Made by a program: the position numbers and the translations under genes. DNA of 45,650 bases, from positions 1 through 45,650 of the IMG/VR virus record IMGVR_UViG_3300005096_000116; one strand, written 5' to 3'. Within the stretch, counting starts at the first letter, position 1. Each line of letters opens with the position of its first letter. This document shows, one piece after another, positions 7,342-45,650 of this stretch. The stretch is from a virus. Under the pieces are notes generated by a model, which was not told where the DNA came from, ran no database searches, and saw only the letters and a list, made by a program, of their open reading frames with translations.

Positions 7342-10300
7342 TTACTCACGGTCAGGACCAAATGCTAACTCTTTCAATGTAATTTCTTCACCTTCTTCAA
7401 GGTACTGGTATATTTCGTCGGATGTAGCCCAAGTCTGTGCTGCACCCGGGATATGAAATATAGTAGCTGCAAAAGTGAATATCCCTTTTTGTTGTGCTCT
7501 CGTCACTTCTTCACCTTCGTATAAATTTGAAGCTGCGCCATATATACTCTCAAGCCCGTTACCCACCAAATTAAAAGCTGGTGATGCATTGAATTTATGA
7601 TAATCAGACACAAACACATTCGCAGCGTCCCTTGCGTAAGGTACAGTACCTATGGTGGTGCTTGCCATCTTTGACATTATACGCTTCATATACTCATCTG
7701 GCTCTTCGTCTTCTTCAGGTTCAGCTTCACCTCTTATCAGCAATTCATACATAGTTGTGGCGAAAATCATGTAAAATATACCGGCTGCGAATTGAGATGA
7801 GCTGACCCAACCCTGCTTTTTACCTCTAACCAGCGTCCTTTGAACATTGAACGCTGTGTTAAACCAAGTCATGAATGAGAAAAACAATCTTGCTATCTGA
7901 TTATTAGTACCTAACATCGCACTCATGTTACTAATGTCACCTGAACCCTGTGATTGATCTACGAGCCAATCCGCATATTCAACAGCTTTAGATTCATCAC
8001 CCTCAAAATCAACCATACCTTTCTCAAACCCAGCGTGCCATACAGGAAAATCAACCACATACAGCTGGACATAACCTATTCCCATCATTGATGCACGTCT
8101 GAACGAAGCGATCTTTCCTTCTTTTACTTCTATCTGTTTCATAGCATCATTGAATTCTCGATCAAATGTTTTTAACCGGTGTCGTAATACTGATGATTTA
8201 AGTAGAGCAAAATCACGAGCAGCCCACCCTTCTTGTCCGTTGATAGGGATAGTTTTCAGCATACTCATTATACCTTGTGGTATATAACCTTTACCTTCCA
8301 TCATCAATGTTCTGGCAGTGAATAACCCTGATGGTTGTATTAATATAGTACTCAATTTATAACCTAAATATACATAAGTCATACCGGTACGAAGATGCCT
8401 GGCTAAGTTTGAACCAAACACTTGCGCTTCAGTAGCTCGACCACCTTTAGCTACACTACTCAACCACACATTCATCTTAGCGTACTCTTCTTTACCTAAC
8501 TTCCGTTTAAGTTTCATTGATATTACAGGGTCACGTATAATTTTATTCACTTGTCGAACTGTGTCGTAGTGAGTGATGTAGTGAATAACTTCCTGAAAAT
8601 GATCAGTAATCACACCAAGGTCGAAACGAATTGGCGCGTAGAACTCAGTACGCGTATGAGTTGCACCGGCTGTTACAGACTGATTCAAACTACCGAGTGT
8701 AGAAAACATTGATTCGAGTCGTGCTTCACGTTTGTCTTTAAAATCAGCAGCCCTCGCATCACGATCATGATCATATTGTAAAGTGTAATAACCACCTTTC
8801 ATTTTTCCAAACTTAGTTTGGAACTCAACCGGGTCTACCTTTTTAGGTGTCAGCCCAGTACCTTTAAGTGTTGTCTCAGATAATAAAGGGTACAAAGAGT
8901 CCATTGAATCCCATACTTGTTTTACTATTGACCAATCACTTTCTGTCATGTGATCTAAAACAGCTTGAAGTTTGGGGTTATTAATTGTTATCTCAGCTTC
9001 ATTATCAGGGTTAGCCCACCCTTCCCCAAGTAACATTTTACGAAGGTTACCAGCATTACCAGCATTCAATGCAACAGACAGTATTTGATGCCCATACAAA
9101 TAAGTATTAACAGGCACGTTATCTTCGTCCACTGCAGCTATCTCTGGAATGTATATTTTTTGGTGCATACGTTTCAAATCAGTATTAGGTCGGTTCTTTA
9201 TCGCAGTGATTAAAGGTAACGCTGTACTTTCCCATAAAGTCAATTCTTCATCTCTTGCTACAACAGTTGGTCTGTGAATTAAGGAAGTCATCAACCCAGC
9301 TGGTTCACCTTTATCTAACCAGAATGTCATAAACGGAACCTTTGACATCCATGAAACACCTTCACTTGAAACACGTTCAGTCCACTTTACTTTCCCTGTT
9401 ATCTTTTCAAGTAACGTATAACCCGTTTCATCTTTGCCTGTGGTGCGTTCCGGCCTAAATACGGTATCAAGTTTATCAAGATGATTAATTATTTTAGATT
9501 TTAACTTATCAAATTCGATACTCTCTTTTAGTAGAGTTATCTTATTTGCGTACTTGGCAACATACTCAATGTTCTTCACCGAGTCATTGATGCCCTGTAA
9601 GTCTGTGAACGGAACATTTTTCCAGTGAATCACGTAGGACTCATTCAAAACCTGCTTTGATAGCACCAATTCTTCACCATGTTTTTCAAGACGTTCTTTC
9701 GCCCACAGATTAATGCTGTCAACATCCTTCAGTGTTGCTGACTTTCTGAACTCGAAGCGTTCAAGTATCTTGACGATCTGATCCCAGTAACCACCTTCAG
9801 CTTTCATGATGGCTTCACGAACTTTCTTTTTACTGTAACGTGACATACGGTCGACGATTTTCACAGTGTCATTTTTCGCAGCTGTCGCCGCCATGCCGAG
9901 ATAATAGTTCAACACCTGACGCATCTTCGCAGCAGCAGCACCTTCACGGTTACCTTCAACCAGCATCCGAGCAGATTCCTGTGCAGCGCGGATCTCAGCT
10001 TTGCGGTATTTACCCGGGTGAATCTCACGGAACGACAGTCTGCCGATGCGTTCTTCAGCTAATGCTTTAATGGTTGCACGGTCAATCGTCGGCGCGTTGG
10101 TGCCACGTGCAACCATCTTCAGCTCATGCAGTAGCAACTTACCACGTTCTTCATCCCGCACTGCCTCATCAGCTTCACGCTCAATGGTGCCGTCGGTGAG
10201 AATATCACCATGGCGTTCAACCATTTTCGCTTCAGCGTTGACCTTTGCCTGGTCTTTGATAGCCGGTGCAGTGATCAGGTCAATCAACATCTCAGACCCG

Positions 10301-13300
10301 GAACCGTAACCGAAGAACGCAGCAGCTTCGTCCGGGTGCACACCTTTCATACCTTTTGCTGTCATACCGCTTAACGCGGGTGGAATGATTGTGCGTTTAT
10401 GACCTAATTTATTAGTGCGTTCTTCACCAGTCATTGCTTTGACAGCAGCGTGGTCGATTTTAAATGCGCCATTTTTAAGTTCTTCACGCGCCTTATAAAC
10501 CTGTTCTTTACTCAGTGACTGAAGTTCTTCATCAATGATGTCCTGCTTTTCTACTTTCCACCATTCCTTCGTTTGGCGTGTGAGTTGTTTAATGATTTTG
10601 TCACGCAGCGTTTCAGACTGTACATCTTTAACTTTCTCCTTACGTGCTTGATAATCAGCGAACTCTTCGTCAGTCATGCCGGCCATCGTCGCATCGGAGA
10701 ACATCGGCTCCACGCGAGCACGCGCCTGTGCAGCCTGTATCTGTTCCTCGGTAGCCAGCAGCCGGTCGAACACTTCACGCATTTGATTATCCAGGTTCAC
10801 GTTGAGCTGACCACGCAGCGCCTGATAGATACGTGACAGCCAGCGTGCAAACGCTCTGAACGCATTACGCAGCTCGATAGACGGTGCCTTACCTTCCATC
10901 AGATAAGCCTCGAACCCACGTGCAAACTGCTCATGCACAGCACGACGAATCGCTGCATCTTTATCACGGTCACCGGTTGTGTTGCTGTCTAGGAATATGA
11001 TTACATCATCAGCAGTGATTGAACCTTCTTTTGCGGTTGGTTGGTCTGTTGGTTGTGCGAACTGTTCATTAGCGATTGCGTCAGGTAACTTTGGTTTTTT
11101 AAATCCTGCTAATTCAGCTTCTTTTTCTGTTGCTTCAACAATCAACACAGGTACAGTTTTAACTCCTGCTTTTATTGCAGCGAGTGCTCTGTGACGACCT
11201 TCTTGTGATACTCGACCCTCTGAAACGTCATAAGTAAGCATGGGAAACTTTTCGCCGGCTTTCATTTTTTCCGTATAATCATCTACAGCTTCAGGTTCTA
11301 TATAATTCGGGTAATGTTTAGCTTCTATATCAATAACTTTTTTATTGTTTACATCAATATTCAGTGACTTAAGATAATTAAAAGGTGTGACATTAACTAT
11401 TTTCCATACTTTTCCTTTTTGTTCTTCAAAGTATTCTGGTAAACGCATCATGTCATCATAAAAAGGCATCTCAGTTGTTGTGTTATCGAACGCATTTAAA
11501 CCTTCACCACCCTGCTTCAACACATCAAACTTATCACCCAGGTAACTGTTCGCCTCTTTAGCCACATCATCAGCGTTACGTTTGTACCAGTTGTTGATTG
11601 ACTTCAGCATCTCGGTGTCACCCTTGAATTCCATCTCATACATGAAGTGAGCGAACTCGTGCAGGAACGTACTCAGATCAGCAGATTCAGTGAGTCTGAT
11701 GATACTGTTTGCCGGGTCATAGTAACCGCGTGCTGTTTTTGAATCGGTGCGTTGCCCCAAAGTAAAAGCATCAGGATCAGTTTTAATCGGTTGCGATACA
11801 AAATCAGGATCAAGTTCAAAACCCTGCTGACGTTGCAGTGAAGCCGGTGTGGTATCTGTTTCGATAAAATCTTCTTCAGCTAAACCGGCTTGTGGTTTCA
11901 GTGATTCGGGGAGGTCAGTGATGTCTTGTTGTGCTAGAAGATTAGCTGACGCTTTGAAGTCGGGGTCAAATGATGCGTTGACTGAGCGGATTTTGGATGG
12001 GTCGAATATTATAATGTCGTTACCGATACCGATAGAAGGTAACGACATCCCTTCATAACCTTTATTGATAAGTTCTGCTGTTAATTCAGGCGAAGGTTCT
12101 CTCCCGTCATAATTAAAAAGATTCAGCTTTTTAAGATACACAGGAATCTGCTGTTCCCCTTTCCCTTCAACATCTGCTGCAACTCTTGATTCTATCGGTG
12201 AATCTGCAAACCATATCCCAACAGGATCTTGTCTAAAACCTTCAAACTCACGATCAGTTGTGTGATACAAAACATTTTCAGTATCAAACCCCATCTCTTC
12301 AGCACGTTGCAATCGCGCTTCCTGAGACATATCCAACCCTTTATCAACAGCTTGTTTAAACTCAGATGCTTCGACTACTGACTCACCCTTGAACCCTGAT
12401 GATTTAGCTTGCGACAGCACCTGCTCACCCTCAAGTCGAGCACGCTCACCGGTCTGTGGACCTTCAACAATGAACCCTGCATTCTGATACGCTTCAACAA
12501 CAGTGATGCCTTCACGTTTAGCTTTTGCTGCAAAGTACAACGGCACCATCTCAGCCATTGTACTTGCCACTTTAGGGCTATACACACCGGTATCAATCAA
12601 CTGTTGACGGACAGCTTGTGAAATTTCTTGAGCATCAACATACTCGCTGGTGTTCTCCTGCGCTTCTTCCATCAACACCTTGATATAGTTGTCAGTCTCC
12701 TGTTTGGCTTGCTCCTGACGGAACGGTGACACTGTCTCGTCACTCATGGTCATACTATCACGCAGCTGTTCAAAATGGTCAGTAGCTGCTATTTCAGCAG
12801 CGAAGTCAGCAACTGGTATCTGCACATCAGAATCAAGTGCAGATGCTTCAGCAGCCTGTTCTGATAACAGCTTCAATGCCGGGTCAGCTTCGATCTCAGC
12901 CGGTGTTTTAGTTTGCAGATACAGTGACACCTGAGAACCGTCGATGAACACATTCGTATTGTTCTCACCGTCAGCTTCATTGACAAACTGTTTAAATGAT
13001 TCTTTGTCACGTTCTTTCAGTTTTGATTCTTGAGATTTTTCATTGAGCTGGTCAATTTTAGATTGTTCAACTGCACCTTTTGACTCGCTGACTGTTTCAT
13101 CACGGATGACAGCATCAATTGTTTTACGAATAGTAGTCGCAGCGGTGATCTGTGCGCCGCCGGCGACAACAGTGGCAATGGCTGTCACAGCTTGACGTTG
13201 TAATTGAATGTCAACCATCTCACTGACAGTTTCAGCATTGTTAATTTGTTCATCAAGATCAAAAGCGTAGGCGTTAATACTCTGACCCAGGGTGGCCAGC

Positions 13301-14286
13301 TGCTCAGTGCCCATCTCACGAACCATGAACTTCAAAGCATCTTTTTTAAGCCCGGTACTTTTACCTGTGATGATTGTTTCAAGTACACCAGTTGGTAACA
13401 TCTCAGTACCCACTTCAATAGTGGCATCGATGCCGGCATACCAACCAGCCTCACCAGGTGTTAAACCTTCAGCGCGACCTTGACCATAGGAACTACTGAA
13501 GGTCTGAACACCCATTGTGGCGAGCAGTGGTGCTGACCGACCACCTGATAACAACATTAAAGCGAAACCTGGTGCCATATTAACCAATGACTCAATACCG
13601 CCTCTGACGCCTTGTTCGAGCAAGTTCAAATCTTCAGGCGCAATGTCAGCACGTTTCTCGTTGAGACTTCTCAACTCTGTTAACAATTTATCAGTTGCAT
13701 CTGACTTTGCTTGCTGCAACTCTTCATCGGTGTCAATACCCATGCGCACGGCCAACGCTTTAGACTCAGATTGGGCGACCTGCTCCATACCAAAGGGTAA
13801 TCGACTCGCAGGAATTAGATCTTGAATCTTCGACGGTGTAATATCAGCACCAACTAACAGTGAACTCTTCTCTAGAGCACTGTAACCTAAACTTGTTGAT
13901 TCACCGAAACTTTTGAATGTTTTTTCAAAGTTGAATATATTTTCAATCGACTTCATGACGTCAACATCATCTTGAGCAATGATAGCGTTGTCGATATCAT
14001 TAAATCGATTCGCAGTGACAGGGTTGGTTTTACGCAGTTCACTGAAATCAAACTGAGATTTTTTAATGTCCTGCTCAACAGCGACAGGATCAGACTGCAC
14101 ACCGATGACCGGAATACCTGATTGTTTGCTCAAATTCAACTCTTTAGCATGCTGATCAGGATTAACCTTGACCGCTTCACTCATGTTGAAATTCAAACTG
14201 TCATTGACAGCATCATCCTCAACATTTTCACCAGGTGCTACCTGTGACAATGAACCTATGTCAACCTTACTCGGATCAAATGCCAT
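7342..14286 (-). CDS. Giant internal virion / ejection protein (T7 gp16 position), polyvalent: ART-like, HExxH zincin and ParB-like domains (2314 aa)
   Basis: Single 6.9-kb ORF after gp14/gp15-like genes. HEFAH at 11647-11661, EGRHRALAAIKAGVKTVPV (ParB/Srx-like) at about 11176-11202, LYHTTDREFEGF...IIIFDPSKIRSV at about 11962-12294. Hydrophobic segments near the C-terminus. Confidence 0.85.
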   Translation of the reverse strand: MAFDPSKVDIGSLSQVAPGENVEDDAVNDSLNFNMSEAVKVNPDQHAKELNLSKQSGIPVIGVQSDPVAVEQDIKKSQFDFSELRKTNPVTANRFNDIDNAIIAQDDVDVMKSIENIFNFEKTFKSFGESTSLGYSALEKSSLLVGADITPSKIQDLIPASRLPFGMEQVAQSESKALAVRMGIDTDEELQQAKSDATDKLLTELRSLNEKRADIAPEDLNLLEQGVRGGIESLVNMAPGFALMLLSGGRSAPLLATMGVQTFSSSYGQGRAEGLTPGEAGWYAGIDATIEVGTEMLPTGVLETIITGKSTGLKKDALKFMVREMGTEQLATLGQSINAYAFDLDEQINNAETVSEMVDIQLQRQAVTAIATVVAGGAQITAATTIRKTIDAVIRDETVSESKGAVEQSKIDQLNEKSQESKLKERDKESFKQFVNEADGENNTNVFIDGSQVSLYLQTKTPAEIEADPALKLLSEQAAEASALDSDVQIPVADFAAEIAATDHFEQLRDSMTMSDETVSPFRQEQAKQETDNYIKVLMEEAQENTSEYVDAQEISQAVRQQLIDTGVYSPKVASTMAEMVPLYFAAKAKREGITVVEAYQNAGFIVEGPQTGERARLEGEQVLSQAKSSGFKGESVVEASEFKQAVDKGLDMSQEARLQRAEEMGFDTENVLYHTTDREFEGFRQDPVGIWFADSPIESRVAADVEGKGEQQIPVYLKKLNLFNYDGREPSPELTAELINKGYEGMSLPSIGIGNDIIIFDPSKIRSVNASFDPDFKASANLLAQQDITDLPESLKPQAGLAEEDFIETDTTPASLQRQQGFELDPDFVSQPIKTDPDAFTLGQRTDSKTARGYYDPANSIIRLTESADLSTFLHEFAHFMYEMEFKGDTEMLKSINNWYKRNADDVAKEANSYLGDKFDVLKQGGEGLNAFDNTTTEMPFYDDMMRLPEYFEEQKGKVWKIVNVTPFNYLKSLNIDVNNKKVIDIEAKHYPNYIEPEAVDDYTEKMKAGEKFPMLTYDVSEGRVSQEGRHRALAAIKAGVKTVPVLIVEATEKEAELAGFKKPKLPDAIANEQFAQPTDQPTAKEGSITADDVIIFLDSNTTGDRDKDAAIRRAVHEQFARGFEAYLMEGKAPSIELRNAFRAFARWLSRIYQALRGQLNVNLDNQMREVFDRLLATEEQIQAAQARARVEPMFSDATMAGMTDEEFADYQARKEKVKDVQSETLRDKIIKQLTRQTKEWWKVEKQDIIDEELQSLSKEQVYKAREELKNGAFKIDHAAVKAMTGEERTNKLGHKRTIIPPALSGMTAKGMKGVHPDEAAAFFGYGSGSEMLIDLITAPAIKDQAKVNAEAKMVERHGDILTDGTIEREADEAVRDEERGKLLLHELKMVARGTNAPTIDRATIKALAEERIGRLSFREIHPGKYRKAEIRAAQESARMLVEGNREGAAAAKMRQVLNYYLGMAATAAKNDTVKIVDRMSRYSKKKVREAIMKAEGGYWDQIVKILERFEFRKSATLKDVDSINLWAKERLEKHGEELVLSKQVLNESYVIHWKNVPFTDLQGINDSVKNIEYVAKYANKITLLKESIEFDKLKSKIINHLDKLDTVFRPERTTGKDETGYTLLEKITGKVKWTERVSSEGVSWMSKVPFMTFWLDKGEPAGLMTSLIHRPTVVARDEELTLWESTALPLITAIKNRPNTDLKRMHQKIYIPEIAAVDEDNVPVNTYLYGHQILSVALNAGNAGNLRKMLLGEGWANPDNEAEITINNPKLQAVLDHMTESDWSIVKQVWDSMDSLYPLLSETTLKGTGLTPKKVDPVEFQTKFGKMKGGYYTLQYDHDRDARAADFKDKREARLESMFSTLGSLNQSVTAGATHTRTEFYAPIRFDLGVITDHFQEVIHYITHYDTVRQVNKIIRDPVISMKLKRKLGKEEYAKMNVWLSSVAKGGRATEAQVFGSNLARHLRTGMTYVYLGYKLSTILIQPSGLFTARTLMMEGKGYIPQGIMSMLKTIPINGQEGWAARDFALLKSSVLRHRLKTFDREFNDAMKQIEVKEGKIASFRRASMMGIGYVQLYVVDFPVWHAGFEKGMVDFEGDESKAVEYADWLVDQSQGSGDISNMSAMLGTNNQIARLFFSFMTWFNTAFNVQRTLVRGKKQGWVSSSQFAAGIFYMIFATTMYELLIRGEAEPEEDEEPDEYMKRIMSKMASTTIGTVPYARDAANVFVSDYHKFNASPAFNLVGNGLESIYGAASNLYEGEEVTRAQQKGIFTFAATIFHIPGAAQTWATSDEIYQYLEEGEEITLKELAFGPDRE

Positions 14287-31787: not shown

Positions 31788-32607
31788 AACATATCACCGT
31801 TGAAATCAATTAGTTATGCCGAGTGTATCACCGGTTGATAATAAACTGCAAATAAGGTGATATTCAGCACTGTTTCGCTGGAACGCTCAGAATGTTTTAG
31901 GGTCGGTCGTTTTACTGTATTAACCGACACAGTTAAATCAGTTTAAAAACATGGAACGACACAATGAAAAAAATCATAATGTGTTATAAATCACATGCTT
32001 ACTCTAAGAATCAATAACCTACCACATACGAGTTGACCACAGGTTGAGCACTCAATCCTGAGAATTGAAGAGTCTCTCATTTCACAGGTTGGGGTATTCG
32101 TTTTCACTAGTATGTCCTAAGTCATTGATTCTTATTTCACCGTCTATATGAATCAGTTACTTAGGGCATACCACTACCCATAAAGAGATACTTACGATCC
32201 TATATAAATCAATGACTTACCACATATATCTCTTTAGTATAGGTTACTTGTTCAAAGTAGGTATGTCTCATATAACTTATTGATATATAAAGAGAAAATA
32301 GAAAAAGTTAAACGACTTTCGGTCGTTTGTCCTAAGCTGTTGATTGTTAGCATAAGTCATTGATATACAAGAAGAATAAATCCGACACATAGTTTATTGG
32401 GTCGTTTGTCCTAAGTCATTGATTTTTTAGTAATATCCGACACAATGAAAATCAGTAAATTATCGTCTTGAAATGATGCAAATCGAGTCATTTTAATATT
32501 GTTAATTAAATCACATACTTACTTTAAAAATCAATAGTTTACGACACCATATGTGTCGTTTGTCATTCGGTCATATAATATTCGACACAATGAAACGTTG
32601 ATTTTAC
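31788..32607. promoter_or_regulatory. 820-bp non-coding divergent hub with at least four repeat families (candidate origin / operator array / early-late switch)
   Basis: No ORF above 20 codons. CGACAC repeats (31925, 31957, 32383, 32438, 32542, 32583; inverted at 32553). TGTCCTAAGTCATTGATT family (32113, 32328, 32351, 32407; inverted at 32150-32170 and 32205-32220). 25-nt direct repeat 32321-32345 / 32400-32424. 29-nt repeat 31988-32016 / 32508-32536. Confidence 0.8.
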
Positions 32608-32973
32608 ATGTATATTCCTTATAATTCGTCACGTAACTTTAATAAACGAGGACACACAGTGAATAAAGACAACCGACTAAATCGTGGTAAAAAAGAACGT
32701 ATCACTCAAAAAGAACTTCAAAGTCGTATGTTTTACAATCCAGTAAAAGGTACTTTCATGCGAATAAAGAATGTCAGCAACAGCCACAAAGCTGGTGAAA
32801 TCATCGGAACTAATCATCACCAGGGGCACTTAAACGTCATGATTAACAGTGAAATTTATAAACTACATCATCTCGCATGGCTATACATGACCGGCGAGTG
32901 GCCAACGAAAGCCATTAGGCACATCAACGGCGACAAAACCGACAACCGTTTCTTTAATCTGAAATATACTTGA
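32608..32973 (+). CDS. HNH endonuclease (HNH_3-type). An alternative start at GTG 32659 has a GAGGA SD.
   Basis: YKLHHLAWLYMTGEWP...IRHINGDKTDNRFFNL matches the His-Me finger pattern H..aW...G....vdHiNGd..DNR..NL. Confidence 0.75.
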   Translation: MYIPYNSSRNFNKRGHTVNKDNRLNRGKKERITQKELQSRMFYNPVKGTFMRIKNVSNSHKAGEIIGTNHHQGHLNVMINSEIYKLHHLAWLYMTGEWPTKAIRHINGDKTDNRFFNLKYT

Positions 32974-32996
32974 CAACTGTTCCACTTTGTTATACT
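32970..32996 (+). promoter_or_regulatory. Sigma70-like promoter (TTGACA, 15-nt spacer, extended -10 TGtTATACT)
   Basis: ttgacaactgttccactttgttatact read directly. It shares TTGAC..TGTTCCACT with the minus-strand promoter at 39695-39722. Confidence 0.55.
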
Positions 32997-33034
32997 TTTA
33001 ATATGTAAATTAAATAATAGCAAAGGTGAATAAA

Positions 33035-33172
33035 ATGAGCGATAGAATAGAAGAACTTAAAGAAACGGTTTTCAAACTTGAATCAGAAGGATCAGAAATG
33101 GTGTATGAAAGTTTGAAAGAACTAATATATATCATCATTAATGATATGGAAGAAAGAGACAACAATGCTTAA
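33035..33172 (+). CDS. Small acidic protein (45 aa, below the track cutoff)
   Basis: AAAGGTGAATAAA-ATG initiation region. Translated by hand: MSDRIEELKETVFKLESEGSEMVYESLKELIYIIINDMEERDNNA. Downstream of the promoter. Confidence 0.55.
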   Translation: MSDRIEELKETVFKLESEGSEMVYESLKELIYIIINDMEERDNNA

Positions 33173-33329
33173 TTTCAAAGTCTACGCCGGCAACATGTAC
33201 TGTGGCATCTTATGCGTGCTGCCTGGCTGCTCCCACAACTTCCTATCACGCAGTGACATGGTGCTTAGTAACTCTGGTATCGTTAATTATCTGAAAGGTT
33301 ACAAACATTTGAAATTGGTGAGGATCTAA
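33141..33329 (+). CDS. Hypothetical Cys-rich small protein (possible start ATG 33165 overlapping the previous stop)
   Basis: ORF track only. Confidence 0.3.
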   Translation: MIWKKETTMLNFKVYAGNMYCGILCVLPGCSHNFLSRSDMVLSNSGIVNYLKGYKHLKLVRI

Positions 33330-33516
33330 TCCATGTAGGGAAAACAACTGTCAGAGGATATAAAAATGTGAATTAAGTCGTTAGAAGCGATCAACTCAAT
33401 GAAACTGAATATAGAGAATTTATAGGGTGAAGTAAAAGAACTGCTGGTGTTGAAGCTAAGGCCCGTGTGGAGCCAGCAATTCATTTATTAACACAACAAC
33501 AAAAGGTGACACTAAA

Positions 33517-33711
33517 ATGAACAACAACATTGTAACAAATAAATTTATCGATGACCTTTGCGGAAGAGACATCCAGGTTCAAGTGTTCCTGATGAACGGT
33601 ATCAAACTGGAAGGTTCAATCGTCAGTTTCGATGACGAGAGTATCCTACTATACTCAGGCAAGACACAGCTGGTGGCGCGCCAGGTCATCTCAACATTGC
33701 AGGAGAAGTGA
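33517..33711 (+). CDS. hfq: Hfq-like Sm-fold RNA chaperone (64 aa, core only)
   Basis: FIDDLCGRDIQVQVFLMNGIKLEGSIVSFDDESILLYSGKTQLVARQVISTL aligns without gaps to E. coli Hfq [59 protein letters not shown] SD present. Confidence 0.9.
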   Translation: MNNNIVTNKFIDDLCGRDIQVQVFLMNGIKLEGSIVSFDDESILLYSGKTQLVARQVISTLQEK

Positions 33712-34028
33712 TGATGAACATAGAAATAGCTAACAAGATGATGGCTGACGCTTGTGGTGTTGAAGAAACGCACAGATACATGAATGGCAGTGGTTCAGCT
33801 ACTTTTGGGTGGCTTGATAATGGTAAATTTATACACGGTAAATGGACTATCGAAGACCCGCGATGTTGCCAGATAGTAAGAGAGAAGTTCAAAATAATAA
33901 CAACACCAACAACAGATAGTCATATGTGGTTAAGCGGTGTAAATTCTTCAAGATACAGTACCGGTAAAACCATAGCAGATACAGAAATCGCAGCAATTCT
34001 ATCTATCTGTGAGGAGCTAACAAAATGA
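33708..34028 (+). CDS. Hypothetical protein (106 aa)
   Basis: ORF track; start overlaps the hfq stop; AGGAGAA SD. Confidence 0.6.
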   Translation: MMMNIEIANKMMADACGVEETHRYMNGSGSATFGWLDNGKFIHGKWTIEDPRCCQIVREKFKIITTPTTDSHMWLSGVNSSRYSTGKTIADTEIAAILSICEELTK

Positions 34029-34213
34029 CCACCTCAAACAACACAAATATATTCGGAAACTGTGCTCATTGCGGTCAGTCACTCGATGACGGTCATAAGT
34101 GCCCAGCGGATTACGATGAGTCTGAGATCGTCCAAATACTCGATGACTGCACCGATGATAAGCGCATACACCAGCTGAACCCCTTATGGGAGAGGGTGAC
34201 TGCTAATGGTTAA
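34025..34213 (+). CDS. Hypothetical small protein with a CxxC...HKC motif (62 aa)
   Basis: ORF track; ATGA start/stop overlap. Confidence 0.5.
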   Translation: MTTSNNTNIFGNCAHCGQSLDDGHKCPADYDESEIVQILDDCTDDKRIHQLNPLWERVTANG

Positions 34214-34595
34214 GTTCATAAACATCGCAGATTTAAAAGACCCAAACGATTCTCAAAGTAGAACTTACAGGGAAGTGAACAATGGTACACCACATAAATA
34301 TGACATTGGTGATTTAATCGAGATAACTACCGGTGTAAGACTTTTCGTAGCACAACATAAACGTGACTGTGATGGTACACCACTTTACACACTCACACCT
34401 GAAATGAGAGATGAAAATGATTCACTTAAAGAAATGTGTTTTGTGTATGGTTACTCAGAAGACGATATGAATGAATCATTTAAAGTAAGAATGTTTAACA
34501 CACCAAACAATAACCCATCATGCTTCGGGAAAAAGTTAGATGTCGAAGCATGTAACAACGGTTGTCCTGTGTCAGATGAATGTTATAAACAATAA
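34206..34595 (+). CDS. Hypothetical protein (129 aa)
   Basis: ORF track; RLFVAQHKRDCDGTPLY motif and a Cys-rich C-terminus. Confidence 0.6.
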   Translation: MVKFINIADLKDPNDSQSRTYREVNNGTPHKYDIGDLIEITTGVRLFVAQHKRDCDGTPLYTLTPEMRDENDSLKEMCFVYGYSEDDMNESFKVRMFNTPNNNPSCFGKKLDVEACNNGCPVSDECYKQ

Positions 34596-34610
34596 TCAAA
34601 AGGTGAAACA

Positions 34611-34892
34611 ATGAGTGAAGCAATGAGTGAAGATGAGCTGATAAATGAAATTGACGAGCTGTGGTTTGTTGATTTCACAGGATACAGTGGGGAATCTCCG
34701 CCAAGTAAGGAATGCCGTGAAGATATAAAACAAATCATAGCCCTGATACGCAGATCAGACCGCCAGAGATTGAAGGTAGCTATTGAGTTACTACCTGTGT
34801 TAGAGGCGAGAGATCAACAAAGAGAAATTGATTGCTATCCTGCGATTGCTACCGATAAAGCCATTGATAACATACTAGGAGATATCAAATGA
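34611..34892 (+). CDS. Hypothetical protein (93 aa)
   Basis: ORF track; AAAGGTGAAACA-ATG. Confidence 0.6.
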   Translation: MSEAMSEDELINEIDELWFVDFTGYSGESPPSKECREDIKQIIALIRRSDRQRLKVAIELLPVLEARDQQREIDCYPAIATDKAIDNILGDIK

Positions 34893-35050
34893 CAAAACGT
34901 GAACTGTTACTTTTATCAATCCTGGGGACTGTTCTCAGTATCAGAATGCTGATAAACGGCGGTGAGATATTACGATTGATCGGTTGCTTTTTACTGTTTC
35001 CATCGGTGTATTTCATGGTGATTAATAGTAATGAAGATGTTAATAAATAG
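34889..35050 (+). CDS. Small membrane protein (53 aa, below the track cutoff)
   Basis: Hand translation MTKRELLLLSILGTVLSIRMLINGGEILRLIGCFLLFPSVYFMVINSNEDVNK; ATGA overlap with the upstream stop; two hydrophobic segments. Confidence 0.5.
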   Translation: MTKRELLLLSILGTVLSIRMLINGGEILRLIGCFLLFPSVYFMVINSNEDVNK

Positions 35051-35052
35051 GT

Positions 35053-35304
35053 GTGATTATGGAAAAACCAACAATACCAGAAGTGATGCCGTTAATTAAA
35101 GCATACTACGCAATTTCGGGTAACGGTGTTGGCGGGAACCTGCACATCATACTAGACGATGGGAACATCGATAATGAAGATGTTAAGTTTTGTCTTGATG
35201 AATGCAAAAAATCATGTGACTCTGAAGGTGTTATTTTATGTGGGTTACTTTTACGTATGTCAAAAACTCAGCGGCGAAAGATGTATAAGATGTCGCACAC
35301 ATGA
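35053..35304 (+). CDS. Hypothetical protein (83 aa; [12 protein letters not shown] motif)
   Basis: ORF track; likely ATG start at 35059. Confidence 0.55.
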
Positions 35305-35492
35305 ACACCAGGCGCTGCACCAAATGCAACTCGATGACACAGGTGATCGATTCACGTGTTAACGGTGACGGGCATATCAGGCGTAGGCGTGAGTGTCCAA
35401 GATGTAAAGCACGCTGTACCACGTATGAGTCATCGTATGATGAACTACGGCGTATAAAAGGTAAGCTTGAAAACTACGAAGCAATTAATTAA
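35301..35492 (+). CDS. NrdR-like zinc-ribbon protein lacking the ATP-cone (63 aa)
   Basis: [38 protein letters not shown] aligns to the E. coli NrdR N-terminus [40 protein letters not shown]. The protein ends about 20 aa later. Confidence 0.8.
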
Positions 35493-35639
35493 TCTGATCA
35501 CCAAAGCGAACAAAGAGGTTGCGAAGAATGCCATTAAGTTAAGAATGTTCAACACGCCAAATAGTCCTATAGCAAAAGTGTCAAACGAAATTTATATAGA
35601 TACTATATATGTCATAGACAGGGTGCTAGGGGAACCAGA

Positions 35640-35954
35640 ATGACAACATGTAACACTGACAAAGATACCACGATACTGCTGCATCACATGAGCAACACAC
35701 AGCTGGTCAGTTACGCTGATGATGTTCACATATCCTTTGACTCATCTGAGTTGATTAAAGAGCTGTGTGACCGTCTGACTAAGCTTGGTGATAGCAAACA
35801 CATATTGAACAAAGATACAGGGGTGATCAGTTCACCATTTGATATAGAATCAATTTTACAATCATGCCCTGTATTATTGGCAAAATGGAAATACCATCCT
35901 TTTACCTTTGAAGAAACAGAAGAAGGTCATGTGGTTGTGGTTTATATTAAATGA
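35640..35954 (+). CDS. Hypothetical protein (104 aa)
   Basis: ORF track. Confidence 0.55.
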   Translation: MTTCNTDKDTTILLHHMSNTQLVSYADDVHISFDSSELIKELCDRLTKLGDSKHILNKDTGVISSPFDIESILQSCPVLLAKWKYHPFTFEETEEGHVVVVYIK

Positions 35955-36127
35955 CCACCACCTGCAAAGCTTACCGCACAAGCACCGGTGACTACGTCTG
36001 TGACCGCTGTAGCATACAATGGGATAAGAACGACACCAAGCCACCCTGTAGAATTTTAACACCCAGGAAAGCCAGTGAGCACGTTCACCGGCTATCAATG
36101 GATCAGATCAACGCGATGCTAAGTTAA
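35951..36127 (+). CDS. Small Cys-rich protein (58 aa, below the track cutoff)
   Basis: Hand translation MTTTCKAYRTSTGDYVCDRCSIQWDKNDTKPPCRIL...; ATGA overlap with the upstream stop. Its 3' end overlaps the convergent minus-strand gene by 9 nt. Confidence 0.45.
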   Translation: MTTTCKAYRTSTGDYVCDRCSIQWDKNDTKPPCRILTPRKASEHVHRLSMDQINAMLS

Positions 36128-36337
36128 TGCTTCGCTCAACCACTTTGAATAGTTTGCAGCTTTTTCAGCATCGCGTTGAGGATTCTCAGGTGTTTTGTGC
36201 ATCATTCGACATTGATATTTAATAGCATTACCTAGTAAATAACCTTGATACTGTTCAGGTGTCAATTTAGCTTTAATAATGTCAAGTGTTTCAATTCCAC
36301 CAACATCATAGTAATTACTTTTCTCGTCTTTACTCAT
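36119..36337 (-). CDS. DUF3310-family protein (72 aa)
   Basis: YYDVGGIETLDIIKAKL...LLGNAIKYQCRMMHK...DAEKAANYSKWL fits the DUF3310 pattern. Confidence 0.7.
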   Translation of the reverse strand: MSKDEKSNYYDVGGIETLDIIKAKLTPEQYQGYLLGNAIKYQCRMMHKTPENPQRDAEKAANYSKWLSEALT

Positions 36338-36339
36338 AA

Positions 36340-36531
36340 TTATTTCTCAGTTGACGAATTAATTATTCTTCTTATTTCACCGTAATAAAGAACACCGTCA
36401 TTTGCATATTGCTTCACAGCATTCAACGCACCAGGTAACGCTTTAGCCTTAGCAACTGCAACGTCATACTTGTTTGTTTCATTAGCCTGTTTAATTATTA
36501 CAGGTCGATTTAACCAGCTACCTTTTCTCAT
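36340..36531 (-). CDS. Hypothetical protein (63 aa)
   Basis: ORF track; AAGAGGTGAACAATC-ATG. Confidence 0.55.
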   Translation of the reverse strand: MRKGSWLNRPVIIKQANETNKYDVAVAKAKALPGALNAVKQYANDGVLYYGEIRRIINSSTEK

Positions 36532-36612
36532 GATTGTTCACCTCTTTATATATTTCCCATACCATTCTGAACCCCGCCTCAAACATAGATTCATTTTTTC
36601 ATAGCTATGTTG

Positions 36613-36783
36613 TTAACTTCGAGCATAACCAGCCTTAAAACAAAACCACGCTTCATCAACAGTCTCATTTGTGTAGTGTTTACCATCTTCGGTTTTGCCT
36701 TCTATCAAACTTTCATCAACATCACCATGTATGTTAATAAACCAATTCTCAAACTCTTTTTGTACGTTATCTATACTGCTCAT
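36613..36783 (-). CDS. Small protein (56 aa, below the track cutoff)
   Basis: Hand translation MSSIDNVQKEFENWFINIHGDVDESLIEGKTEDGKHYTNETVDEAWFCFKAGYARS; GGGGTGA SD. The plus-strand track ORF 36607..36813 is its shadow. Confidence 0.5.
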   Translation of the reverse strand: MSSIDNVQKEFENWFINIHGDVDESLIEGKTEDGKHYTNETVDEAWFCFKAGYARS

Positions 36784-42941: not shown

Positions 42942-42967
42942 ACCTTCCCTTCGGGGAGGGTCTTTTT
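42942..42967 (+). terminator. Rho-independent terminator (UUCG tetraloop)
   Basis: accttccc-ttcg-gggagggt 8-bp stem (one G.U) followed by cttttt, 20 nt after the SSB stop. Confidence 0.8.
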
Positions 42968-43053
42968 AAAGTGGCGCTGGTTCCTGAGACCGAAGGTGTA
43001 ACGTGGAGGGCCACCCGTGAGGGGTACTATCACACCAGCGCCATTTTAAAAAG
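42962..43053 (+). ncRNA. 92-nt hairpin element: 19-bp inverted repeat flanking a 54-nt GC-rich structured core
   Basis: ctttttaaagtggcgctgg (42962-42980) pairs with ccagcgccattttaaaaag (43035-43053) with a single G.U. The core holds gtgg-aggg-ccac and cc-gtga-gg (GNRA) mini-hairpins. Confidence 0.5.
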
Positions 43054-43062
43054 ATGATTTAA

Positions 43063-43136
43063 TGCCCGTTAGTGTAGTGGTAACACACCGAACTTTGACT
43101 TCGGTATCATAGGTTCAAATCCTGTACGGGCTACCA
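43063..43136 (+). tRNA. tRNA-Gln (anticodon UUG), CCA encoded
   Basis: Hand-folded cloverleaf: U8 A9, D stem gtgt/acac with a GG loop, anticodon stem ccgaa/ttcgg, loop c-t-TTG-a-c, T arm atagg-TTCAAAT-cctgt, acceptor gcccgt/acgggc, discriminator A, then CCA. Position 1:72 is U.U. Confidence 0.8.
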
Positions 43137-44074: not shown

Positions 44075-45650
44075 ACCCCGACTTCATCTTCAATGTAACA
44101 ACCGGCGACATCAGCTACGATATTGAAACATTCCCCAACGTCTTCACCATCAAGCTGCTGCACAAGACAACACGTCGTCGTTGGTACTTTGAGATAAGTT
44201 ATCGAAGGAACGATATCGTATCGTTCTGTCGCTTCATCGATGTGCTGGCACAGCAAAGTGTACGCATGGTTGGGTACAACAACATCGGGTTCGACTACCC
44301 GGTGATTCACTTCATCTATCGTAACCAGCACGCAGGCATCGGTGCTGCTGAGATTTATGAGAAAGCAATGTCGATCATCAACGCACATGGTCCAGCCAGG
44401 TTCGCTCACATGGTGTGGGAATCTGAGTGGTTAGTTGAGCAGATTGACCTATATAAGATCCACCACTTCGACAACATAGCAAAAGCCACCAGTCTGAAAG
44501 TGCTTGAATTCAACATGCGTATGGACAGCATTGAAGATCTACCGTTCCCCGTTGGTACTGTGCTCAATGATGAGCAGGCTGACACACTCGCTGAGTACAA
44601 TGAGCACGATGTCGATGCGACTGATATGTTTCTGGAACGTACACAGCCACAGATCAAACTACGTGAACGACTGAGTGAACAGTTCGGCAAGAACATGATG
44701 AACATGAGTGATGTCAAGATGGGTGAAACCATTCTGGTCACCGAGATGGAGCGACGTGGCATTTCATGCTATGAGTACGTCGGTAATAAGAAAGTCAAAC
44801 GTCAAACTAAACGTGAATCAATTGATCTAGGTCAAGTCATCTTCCCTTATGTGAACTTTGAATCACAGGCGTTTCAGCAGATTAAAATATACCTGGAATC
44901 CAAAGTTATCACCGAGACGAAAGGTGTGTTCAAAGGACTCATCGCTACCATTGATGGTCTAGATTACCACTTCGGCACCGGCGGTATGCACGCATCGGTT
45001 GAGTCTCAGGTGGTGCATACTACTGATACACACCAGCTGGTTGACGTAGATGTGGCTGGTTTCTATGTACAAATGGCTATTAAAAATAAACTTTATCCGG
45101 AGCATCTTGGTATTGAATTTTGCGAGGCTTATAAAGGTGTATCAGATACCCGTAACACGTTTAAAAAAGGCACACCGGAAAACGAAGCGTTTAAATTAGC
45201 AGGCAATGGTGCGTATGGTGGTAGTAACAATGACTACTCACCATTCCTTGACGCAAAGTACACTATGACAATCACCATCAACGGTCAGCTACTACTGTGC
45301 ATGTTGATTGAACAACTGGTGAAGGTTCCTGGGTTGCGTATGATACAGGCGAACACAGACGGCGTGACGTACTTATGCCCGCATGATTATCTTGAGCACA
45401 CCAGTTCATTGTGTCGGTGGTGGGAAGGTGTCACTAAACTTGAGCTTGAAGAAGCACTGTATAATCGTATGTTCATCAGAGATGTGAACAGTTACATCGC
45501 TGAGAAGACTGACGGCAAACTTAAACGCATAGGAGCATACGCACATGTCACAGCAGAAGAGAACCCAGGCACCAGGGAACTTCCGTATCACAAGGACTGG
45601 TCATCGAGAGTGGTTGCCCTGGCAGCTGAGGCTGCTCTTGTTAGGGGCGA
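44071..45650 (+). CDS. DNA polymerase, family B-like with a DEDD 3'-5' exonuclease domain, N-terminal part (open at the window end; continues at 92..557)
   Basis: Hand translation from ATG 44071. ExoI YDIETFPN, ExoII YNNIGFDYPVIHF, ExoIII YNEHDVDAT. Pol motif A DVDVAGFYVQ (D..S/G-L/F-Y), motif B KLAGNGAYGG (K...N..YG), motif C QANTDGV (DTD-like). No stop before 45650. Confidence 0.85.
   Translation, partial: MNPDFIFNVTTGDISYDIETFPNVFTIKLLHKTTRRRWYFEISYRRNDIVSFCRFIDVLAQQSVRMVGYNNIGFDYPVIHFIYRNQHAGIGAAEIYEKAMSIINAHGPARFAHMVWESEWLVEQIDLYKIHHFDNIAKATSLKVLEFNMRMDSIEDLPFPVGTVLNDEQADTLAEYNEHDVDATDMFLERTQPQIKLRERLSEQFGKNMMNMSDVKMGETILVTEMERRGISCYEYVGNKKVKRQTKRESIDLGQVIFPYVNFESQAFQQIKIYLESKVITETKGVFKGLIATIDGLDYHFGTGGMHASVESQVVHTTDTHQLVDVDVAGFYVQMAIKNKLYPEHLGIEFCEAYKGVSDTRNTFKKGTPENEAFKLAGNGAYGGSNNDYSPFLDAKYTMTITINGQLLLCMLIEQLVKVPGLRMIQANTDGVTYLCPHDYLEHTSSLCRWWEGVTKLELEEALYNRMFIRDVNSYIAEKTDGKLKRIGAYAHVTAEENPGTRELPYHKDWSSRVVALAAEAALVRG
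45560..45650. repeat. Second copy of the 91-bp terminal duplication
   Basis: Identical to 1-91. Confidence 0.95.

Follow-up and report, generated by a model that had tools for sequence, protein, structure and literature searches.

Hfq serves as a central hub of small-RNA (sRNA) regulation in many bacteria, and phages are known to make use of the sRNA networks of their hosts or, as Q-beta does, to depend on the protein itself. The present study concerns a 64-residue Hfq variant coded for by the open reading frame (ORF) located at 33517-33711 on the plus strand of IMG/VR record IMGVR_UViG_3300005096_000116, a 45,650-nucleotide stretch of viral DNA hereafter referred to in its entirety as the window. 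Comparison with described Hfq proteins indicated that the variant retains the residues of the distal RNA-binding face, while those of the proximal pocket, the arginine patch of the rim and the C-terminal tail have been either replaced or lost, a combination that tentatively points to a competitor of host Hfq rather than to an RNA matchmaker.

In bacterial Hfq, the uridines at sRNA 3′ ends are stacked upon and read by the proximal pocket through base-specific, stacking and 2′-OH contacts, and RNA annealing proceeds faster the more arginines the rim carries (PMC10628458). With the Hfq proteins of E. coli and V. cholerae the window protein shares an N-terminal helix followed by five strands, the Sm1 (NGIKL.G..D) and Sm2 (..IST.) signatures, and distal A-R-N residues that are either identical or conservatively exchanged. 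It differs from them in being phage-encoded and ~39% identical to enterobacterial-type Hfq, in presenting T/D/E/R/Q rather than Q/Q/F/K/H in the proximal pocket and CGRD rather than RRER on the rim, and in having no C-terminal domain. The Gram-positive proteins of S. aureus and B. subtilis likewise lack the rim arginine patch, a deficiency associated with poor annealing of sRNA to messenger RNA (mRNA) (PMC10628458), and carry Phe or Tyr at the distal aromatic position; however, their proximal site still has Q8, F/Y42, K and H, which have been lost from the window protein.

By analogy, the closest functional counterpart would be Hfq3 of the B. anthracis plasmid pXO1, likewise an extra Hfq copy on a mobile element, the toxicity of which on overexpression depends on distal-face residues (PMC5348863), although in that instance the element is a plasmid of a Gram-positive host rather than a virulent-type phage, and the two proteins have no close sequence relationship. 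Plasmid-borne Hfq proved to be fairly common, with 67 plasmid records recovered (30 of them from Bacillus), all at less than 45% identity to the window protein.

Among phage proteins, GoF, MotB.1 as well as Frd.2 of T4 are early LSm-like beta-sheet proteins that may affect mRNA stability (PMC12152347). These differ from the window protein in having extra C-terminal domains and no Hfq sequence similarity, having been recognised by structure prediction alone, and no T4 protein was present among the top 50 fold matches of the window protein in BFVD. The best viral fold matches in that database were weak (E ≥ 3e-4; identity ≤ 20%) and included mycobacteriophage ‘Hfq-like domain’ proteins; those of Mycobacterium phages Phabba and Tonenili (139-152 residues; Foldseek E ~1e-3; 17% identity) display a likeness at the level of the fold only. 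Adephagia gp39 is a further actinobacteriophage protein with an Hfq-like fold (PMC11373665), and none of these larger proteins is closely related to that of the window. In the literature searched, phage proteins resembling Hfq or LSm were described at the level of the fold alone and no phage Hfq recognisable by sequence was reported, a result which is no proof of absence.

Identification of a Phage-Encoded Hfq Variant

The relevant ORF extends from an ATG at 33517 to a TGA at 33709-33711, and its product, MNNNIVTNKFIDDLCGRDIQVQVFLMNGIKLEGSIVSFDDESILLYSGKTQLVARQVISTLQEK, consists of an Sm core only. Seven nucleotides upstream of the ATG lies a Shine-Dalgarno-like AAGGTGA (33503-33509, plus strand), itself contained within an A-rich tract, AACAACAAAAGG, made up of four A-R-N triplets, and three AAC codons follow the ATG; the same features recur in the closest homologue (vide infra).

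The original prediction, drawn from the letters alone, was that this ORF specifies an Hfq homologue, and the profile search that it proposed, together with a structure prediction for the single chain, upheld the assignment. Tested against the Pfam Hfq profile (PF17209; gathering cut-off 27 bits), the protein scored 44.3 bits (E = 1.3e-11), with residues 9-62 covering positions 4-58 of the 64-position profile. A phmmer search of Protein Data Bank (PDB) sequences recovered 35 Hfq entries, headed by 3sb2 (E = 1e-7), with which the alignment was gap-free across residues 5-61. The single-chain AlphaFold2 model, generated from a 60-sequence alignment, exhibited an Sm fold with a mean predicted local distance difference test (pLDDT) score of 93.8, and consisted of a helix (residues 5-14) and five strands (20-25, 30-38, 42-46, 50-54 and 58-63). 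When this model was compared with Hfq crystal structures by Foldseek, template modelling (TM) scores of 0.85-0.94 and root mean square deviations (rmsd) of 0.6-0.8 Å were obtained, the top match being 5uk7, E. coli Hfq bound to double-stranded DNA (dsDNA). The Sm1 motif was represented by NGIKLEG at residues 27-33 plus D39, the N, G and D of which are near-invariant across 194 aligned domains. Both of the motifs to which attention had been drawn, LMNGIKLEG and SFDDESILL, were confirmed, as was the absence of a C-terminal tail, the protein ending at the point where E. coli residue 65 aligns.

Profiles of related families were less closely matched. The LSm profile PF01423 gave 16.3 bits against a threshold of 23.4 (E = 0.008, residues 18-40 only), and the cyanobacterial-type/Hfq_1 profiles PF21979 (14.1 against 27 bits) and NF047718 (16.7 against 52 bits) also fell below their cut-offs. 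The NCBIfam Hfq equivalogs, for which a score above the cut-off denotes the same function as chromosomal Hfq, were both matched by the protein (E = 7e-13 and 6e-12) at scores that remained below those cut-offs, namely 48.2 against 95 bits for NF001602 and 45.2 against 61.7 bits for TIGR02383.

That the gene is phage-borne was evident from its surroundings. The window is a whole JGI contig, the first and last 91 bp of which (1-91 and 45560-45650) are identical, and an ORF coding for a 681-residue DNA polymerase runs from 44071 across the end junction to 554; the window is therefore a complete phage genome of ~45.56 kb, either circularly closed or terminally redundant. Genes for the small and large terminase subunits, portal, major capsid, tail tube, tail, internal virion proteins and tail fibre occupy the minus strand, and a primase, an SNF2-type helicase, an exonuclease and a Gp2.5-like single-stranded DNA-binding protein are also encoded. 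Neither an integrase nor a repressor was detected among the ~30 ORFs scanned, which represent part of the ORFs of the genome. For the portal, identity amounts to 72% with the proteins of Vibrio phages 1.021.A, 1.185.O, PS25B.1 and MZH0603, and to ~43% with those of epsilon15-like phages; since this portal resembles the portals of Vibrio phages, one of which (1.021.A) is a seawater isolate obtained on Vibrio splendidus, the host is probably a marine gammaproteobacterium. The carrier of the Hfq gene is thus a complete virulent-type marine podophage with structural genes that resemble those of Vibrio phages, and it is scarcely to be doubted that ORF 33517-33711 codes for a true Hfq-family protein and is carried by a phage.

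Residues of the RNA-Binding Surfaces

Residue roles for the proximal, rim and distal surfaces were taken from the literature (PMC10628458), residue i of the window protein aligning with residue i+1 of E. coli Hfq. All five positions of the proximal uridine pocket are changed, E. coli Q8, Q41, F42, K56 and H57 being represented by T7, D40, E41, R55 and Q56, with Lys to Arg the sole conservative exchange. The neighbouring Sm2 residues Y55 and A58 are likewise changed, to A54 and V57, and the motif that in E. coli reads YKHAIST consequently reads A-R-Q-V-I-S-T, identical only at I-S-T, at positions where Y or F, K, H and A predominate among aligned domains. The rim patch R16-R17-E18-R19 corresponds to C15-G16-R17-D18, in which one Arg is left, at the E18 position; K47 of the rim is represented by Y46; and the C-terminal domain present in E. 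coli has been lost. The original prediction was correct in stating that the KH dipeptide is replaced, ARQVIST standing in place of YKHAIST, but treated as isolated a change that extends to every position of the proximal pocket and is accompanied by reduction of the rim patch to a single Arg.

The distal A-R-N site, by way of contrast, is retained in full: Y25, L26, N28, I30, K31, Q52 and T61 are represented by F24, L25, N27, I29, K30, Q51 and T60, the aromatic residue at the Y25 position being kept as Phe, as had been predicted. In the closest homologue, P0003, the proximal pocket consists of T, D, D, R and H and the rim reads TKKD, the distal face being intact with K31R. It is the combination of changes in the window protein that is unusual, and not the single F42E substitution.

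The Hfq gene is, moreover, flanked by small phage ORFs without family matches, and does not occupy the miaA-hfq-hflX context of its chromosomal equivalents. Since the Sm2 motif, the proximal pocket, the rim patch and the chromosomal context of Hfq are all wanting, and the equivalog scores fall short of their thresholds, the window protein should not carry the functional annotation ‘RNA chaperone Hfq’.

Rarity and Selective Constraint

P0003, a 64-residue protein that is 71% identical to the window protein, was the only close homologue recovered from 1.84 billion representative proteins. It is located on L001, a 774-bp NCBI metagenome contig that exhibits the same ribosome-binding site (AAAGGTGA), the same AAC-rich upstream context and the same overlapping stop and start as the window. 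The ORF after the Hfq gene in L001 (122 residues) is unrelated to its counterpart in the window, but a protein then begins, MNNYTNRFGNCAQC, that matches the product of the third gene of the window (FGNCAHCG), and L001 is therefore a fragment of a related phage. Comparison of the two Hfq genes gave a synonymous divergence (dS) of 1.43, which is near saturation, and a ratio of nonsynonymous to synonymous divergence (dN/dS) of 0.14, from which it is clear that the gene of the window is under purifying selection.

Survey of related phages for synteny, as had been suggested, was undertaken by way of the primase (49-79% identity), which led to 29 related IMG/VR loci (L002-L030). The Hfq gene was present in none of these, at least 13 of which span the whole of the primase-to-terminase interval. 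Counterparts of the other small ORFs were confined to orf129 (in one locus), a 58-residue ORF and the HNH gene, and because almost none of the small ORFs of the window is shared with these loci the module concerned (32608-36700), which lies between the primase and the small terminase subunit, is hypervariable.

Four matches were obtained among 50,697 GenBank phage records, each of which was rejected as host hfq on a mislabelled or contaminated record, and the use of P0084 (vide infra) as the query against phage records had the same outcome, with no genuine phage Hfq detected. Scans of IMG/VR with the window protein and with a two-sequence alignment gave no matches, and word-indexed searches for homologues, run with the window protein and with P0003, returned the queries alone. 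An IMG/VR scan with a 60-sequence Hfq alignment recovered eight loci, all of which were rejected as evidence of phage Hfq: each codes for a canonical host-type protein that has a YKHAI(S/C) motif and extends beyond the core at its C-terminus, the extension being long and Gly-rich in two, and several of the loci are situated at the ends of the fetched stretches. A degenerate DNA pattern for SGKTQLVxRxxIST, which does match the window and L001, was absent from the JGI metagenome collection. These results accord with the earlier expectation that a virus-borne Hfq is uncommon, and the gene is best described as a rare accessory gene of the phage.

Two sets of matches obtained in the course of these searches require separate mention. 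P0002, the top-scoring representative match, is a protein of 1115 residues composed of ~20 perfect copies of a 55-residue unit; the match was dismissed as spurious, the score having come only from a repeated ILLYSG...QLVSTL-like stretch, and the sequence is possibly an assembly artefact. P0004-P0006 and many other top relatives are proteins of 140-180 residues with two tandem Hfq domains, one of which is often proximally degenerate.

PHROGs contains no annotated Hfq family, and E. coli Hfq matches nothing in that collection. B. subtilis Hfq matches phrog_13793 (unknown function; E = 1e-5), and for the window protein the only match was a weak one to phrog_17251, annotated ‘membrane protein’, which P0003 also matched weakly; both families may consist of Hfq-like phage proteins that have gone unrecognised or been wrongly annotated.

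Recurrence of the Residue Pattern in Other Phages

The residue pattern was scored on ~175 aligned Hfq domains drawn from the best representative matches, 12 of which combined a proximal score of 0/3 (F/Y42, K56, H57) with a distal score of 6/6. Two of the 12 are situated on phage contigs unrelated to the window. P0084 (64 residues, ...LVFRQALATV) is coded for at 10001-10195 of L031, a 37-kb contig of lambdoid-like character with genes for a phage replication initiator, RusA, Rad52, an HNH protein and lysozyme, and with no similarity to the window detectable at tblastx E 1e-5. P0108 (69 residues, ...LVMRPAISTI) is coded for at 6773-6982 of L051, which is T4-like and carries genes for topoisomerase II subunits and ThyX. 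Each resembles the window protein in being tail-less with an intact distal face, K56 being replaced by Arg, H57 by Q or P, and F42 by D or A, and each is located among small ORFs on a phage contig, although they are only 45-51% identical to the window protein and belong to unrelated phage backbones.

Common origin of these proteins was not supported by the neighbour-joining tree, which grouped the window protein with P0003 at 58% bootstrap and retained P0108 with them at only 7%, a signal too weak to sustain a single phage-Hfq clade, and that proposal was dropped. The closest bacterial relative, P0155, is 52% identical to the window protein, contains FDDESILL, adjoins hflX, and keeps Q8, Y55, K56 and H57. 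Recurrence of the same pattern in three unrelated phage backgrounds suggests a broader and hitherto overlooked class of protein.

Proposed Mode of Action and Its Alternatives

The 64-residue bare Sm core most likely assembles into an Hfq-like ring. Since the distal residues are kept whereas the proximal pocket, rim patch and tail are replaced or absent, the ring would be predicted to bind A-R-N or A-rich mRNA leaders, or poly(A) tails, by its distal face, and neither to hold the 3′ U-tails of sRNAs nor to catalyse sRNA-mRNA annealing. Produced at an early stage of infection, it would take up A-R-N sites on the mRNAs of the host, which would thereby be uncoupled from control by host Hfq and sRNAs; the targeted sites may include the leader of host hfq, in which event synthesis of host Hfq could be repressed, and binding of A-rich RNA in phage transcripts would also be possible. 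The protein would on this account be a distal-face competitor or decoy of host Hfq and not a matchmaker, a reading that we favour tentatively and rate at somewhat short of an even chance. With its distal face E. coli Hfq binds the 5′ leader of its own mRNA and thereby represses translation of the latter (PMC6348989), so that repression of host Hfq by a distal-competent mimic is possible in principle, and this precedent together with the toxicity of Hfq3, both of them distal-face effects, makes the decoy mechanism a reasonable one.

Extension of the proposal to the unrelated phage lineages, such that each would carry a ‘distal-face-only’ Hfq ring as an anti-Hfq decoy directed at the host hfq leader and at A-R-N sites on mRNAs, shutting down both host Hfq synthesis and sRNA regulation without any chaperone activity, is speculative and on present reckoning unlikely. 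To our knowledge, no such strategy has been described so far for any virus. Were the protein indeed to bind A-rich RNA but not U-tails, it would constitute a natural separation-of-function Hfq and a candidate means by which a virus rewires or silences the post-transcriptional control of its host; at 64 residues it is easy to synthesise, and these ideas are directly testable.

A number of observations weigh against the decoy proposal. P0155, the product of a chromosomal hfq with hfq-hflX synteny, likewise has an acidic residue where F42 aligns, and F42E is therefore by itself no proof that the proximal site has been lost; K56R is conservative, and P0003 retains His at the H57 position. Degenerate-proximal, intact-distal Hfqs were also encountered in apparently bacterial contexts, namely P0064 (near GroEL and S16) and P0142 (near RelA/SpoT), and the pattern is therefore not phage-specific. 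The comparison with host Hfq is indirect, the reference for the surfaces being E. coli Hfq. Enrichment of A-R-N tracts was considered as a sign of distal targets and rejected, the 51 observed not differing significantly from the 38 ± 8 of shuffled sequences. The tract at the Hfq initiation region is statistically ordinary for this genome; A-R-N triplets across the Shine-Dalgarno sequence would allow autoregulation by Hfq, but since such tracts are not unusual in the genome little weight is attached to the point.

Some of the same observations count in favour of the first alternative, that the phage deploys its own Hfq as a canonical RNA chaperone, either stabilising or annealing phage or host sRNAs or titrating host sRNAs via their U-rich 3′ ends. 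The protein scores above the threshold of the Hfq family, the fold of which it shares, K56R retains the positive charge, the sister protein retains the histidine, an acidic residue at position 42 is found in a chromosomal hfq, and the 1-65 truncation of E. coli Hfq, as compared with the full-length protein in a study of the C-terminal domain, is reportedly partly active. This alternative is nevertheless considered unlikely, given that Ala stands in place of Y55 and none of Q8, Q41, F42 and H57 is kept, that annealing scales with rim arginines and a single one remains beside an Asp, and that the scores lie far below the equivalog cut-offs. Because the U-tail-binding pocket is substituted and the rim arginine patch reduced, titration of host sRNAs in the canonical manner becomes the least favoured of the three roles originally envisaged for the protein.

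Nor were RNA partners for a chaperone forthcoming. Three candidates had been put forward, namely the 31788-32607 region, a 92-nt hairpin at 42962-43053 and the 188-nt stretch upstream of the gene, and for none of these was any link to the Hfq gene found. The upstream stretch was rejected as a structured RNA, its folding energy being like that of shuffled sequences (z = −0.42), and an Rfam scan of the window revealed transfer RNA (tRNA) only, with no candidate sRNA and no family matched by the hairpin. The latter has an almost perfect outer stem of ~20 bp (−41.2 kcal/mol; z = −5.65 against shuffles), lies 9 kb from the Hfq gene, and is followed 10 nt further on by the tRNA-Gln(UUG) gene at 43063-43136, the one tRNA-Gln gene in the genome.

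The formation of mixed rings, also raised in the original prediction, would make the protein a dominant-negative subunit poison, contributing defective proximal pockets and rim patches to hexamers of host Hfq. Such a role fits the state of those surfaces, the backbone is near-identical to that of Hfq (rmsd 0.6-0.8 Å), and the beta4 and beta5 strands of the ring interface keep their ..QLV.. and ..IST.. core. It is, however, rather doubtful, the more so than chaperone activity, at ~39% identity to enterobacterial-type Hfq and with both Y55 and H57 changed, residues that reportedly contribute to hexamer stability in mutant structures of Pseudomonas Hfq; strict conservation of the distal face would, furthermore, be needless in a pure poison.

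A role outside RNA matchmaking, in which the Sm ring would bind DNA, serve as a nucleoid protein or scaffold protein partners such as RNase E, Rho or polymerase in takeover or replication, is improbable. The C-terminal tail and basic rim of Hfq are considered to contribute to its DNA and protein contacts, and in the window protein the former is absent and the latter depleted, the residues that have been conserved being those that bind adenine. On the other side, Hfq does bind DNA, and the dsDNA complex 5uk7 was the top Foldseek match; the gene lies near the replication module; and for phage LSm-like proteins, T4 GoF among them, the part played in RNA stability is unclear (PMC12152347).

The remaining suggestion, that the gene is a functionless passenger captured from a host and drifting to loss, would be in keeping with its absence from 29 of 29 related loci, the hypervariability of the region and the loss of canonical motif residues, but is very improbable and already disfavoured, since a dN/dS of 0.14 (dS 1.43) contradicts decay, the ORF is intact in both lineages with a good ribosome-binding site and conserved stop/start coupling, the model is confident, and the residues kept form a non-random pattern, the distal face being intact in three phage lineages.

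Genomic Neighbourhood of the Hfq Gene

The gene is contained within a block of small, tightly packed ORFs (32608-36127, plus strand), of which an HNH endonuclease and a zinc ribbon of NrdR type are the only recognisable products. From gene order, which is typical of such modules, the block is presumed to be an early or host-takeover module, and the placement of the Hfq gene in an early operon, as originally proposed, is on that basis plausible. No match to PADLOC defence models was obtained for the Hfq protein or its neighbours.

The 188-nt stretch immediately upstream of the gene (33329-33516, plus strand) contains no convincing ORF and is probably a leader or an intercistronic spacer within the same transcription unit. 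A signal scan revealed neither a terminator-like site nor a plus-strand promoter-like site in this stretch, and two 9/12 consensus matches on the minus strand. The counterpart of the stretch in L001 is coding, the spacer there being only 19 nt.

The downstream ORF (33708-34028, plus strand; ~105 residues) is without family assignment, no Pfam, PHROG or PADLOC match having been obtained. Its candidate starts (GTG at 33708, ATG at 33711 and ATG at 33714) overlap or abut the Hfq stop (GTGATGATG), and an AGGAG is present at 33701-33705, just inside the 3′ end of the Hfq gene, as would be expected if the two genes were translationally coupled, which is the probable reading.

Between the divergent structural (minus-strand) and small-ORF (plus-strand) modules lies a gene-free, repeat-dense region of 820 bp with a GC content of 33% (31788-32607). 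It contains families of direct and inverted repeats, including TAATATYCGACACAATGAAA at 31918, 32431 and 32576 as well as repeats of 27-51 nt, and is presumably a promoter, operator or origin/control region that drives the block containing the Hfq gene. A promoter-like TTGATT-16-TATAAT is located at 32598-32625, a sigma-70-like 10/12 match that overlaps the annotated start of the HNH gene, and because of this overlap the true HNH start may lie further downstream.

The HNH endonuclease (32608-32973) is coded for by the first gene of the small-ORF block, and its homologues are found at other positions in related phage loci. The 63-residue product of 35301-35492 consists of an NrdR-type zinc ribbon alone (PF22811, E = 2.3e-11), without the ATP-cone. 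In the virion module, an ORF at 7342-14286 codes for a protein of 2314 residues, the only match of which, across its C-terminal half, is phrog_9880 (unknown function), and the homologue of this protein in Vibrio phage 1.021.A is labelled only as a coil-containing protein.

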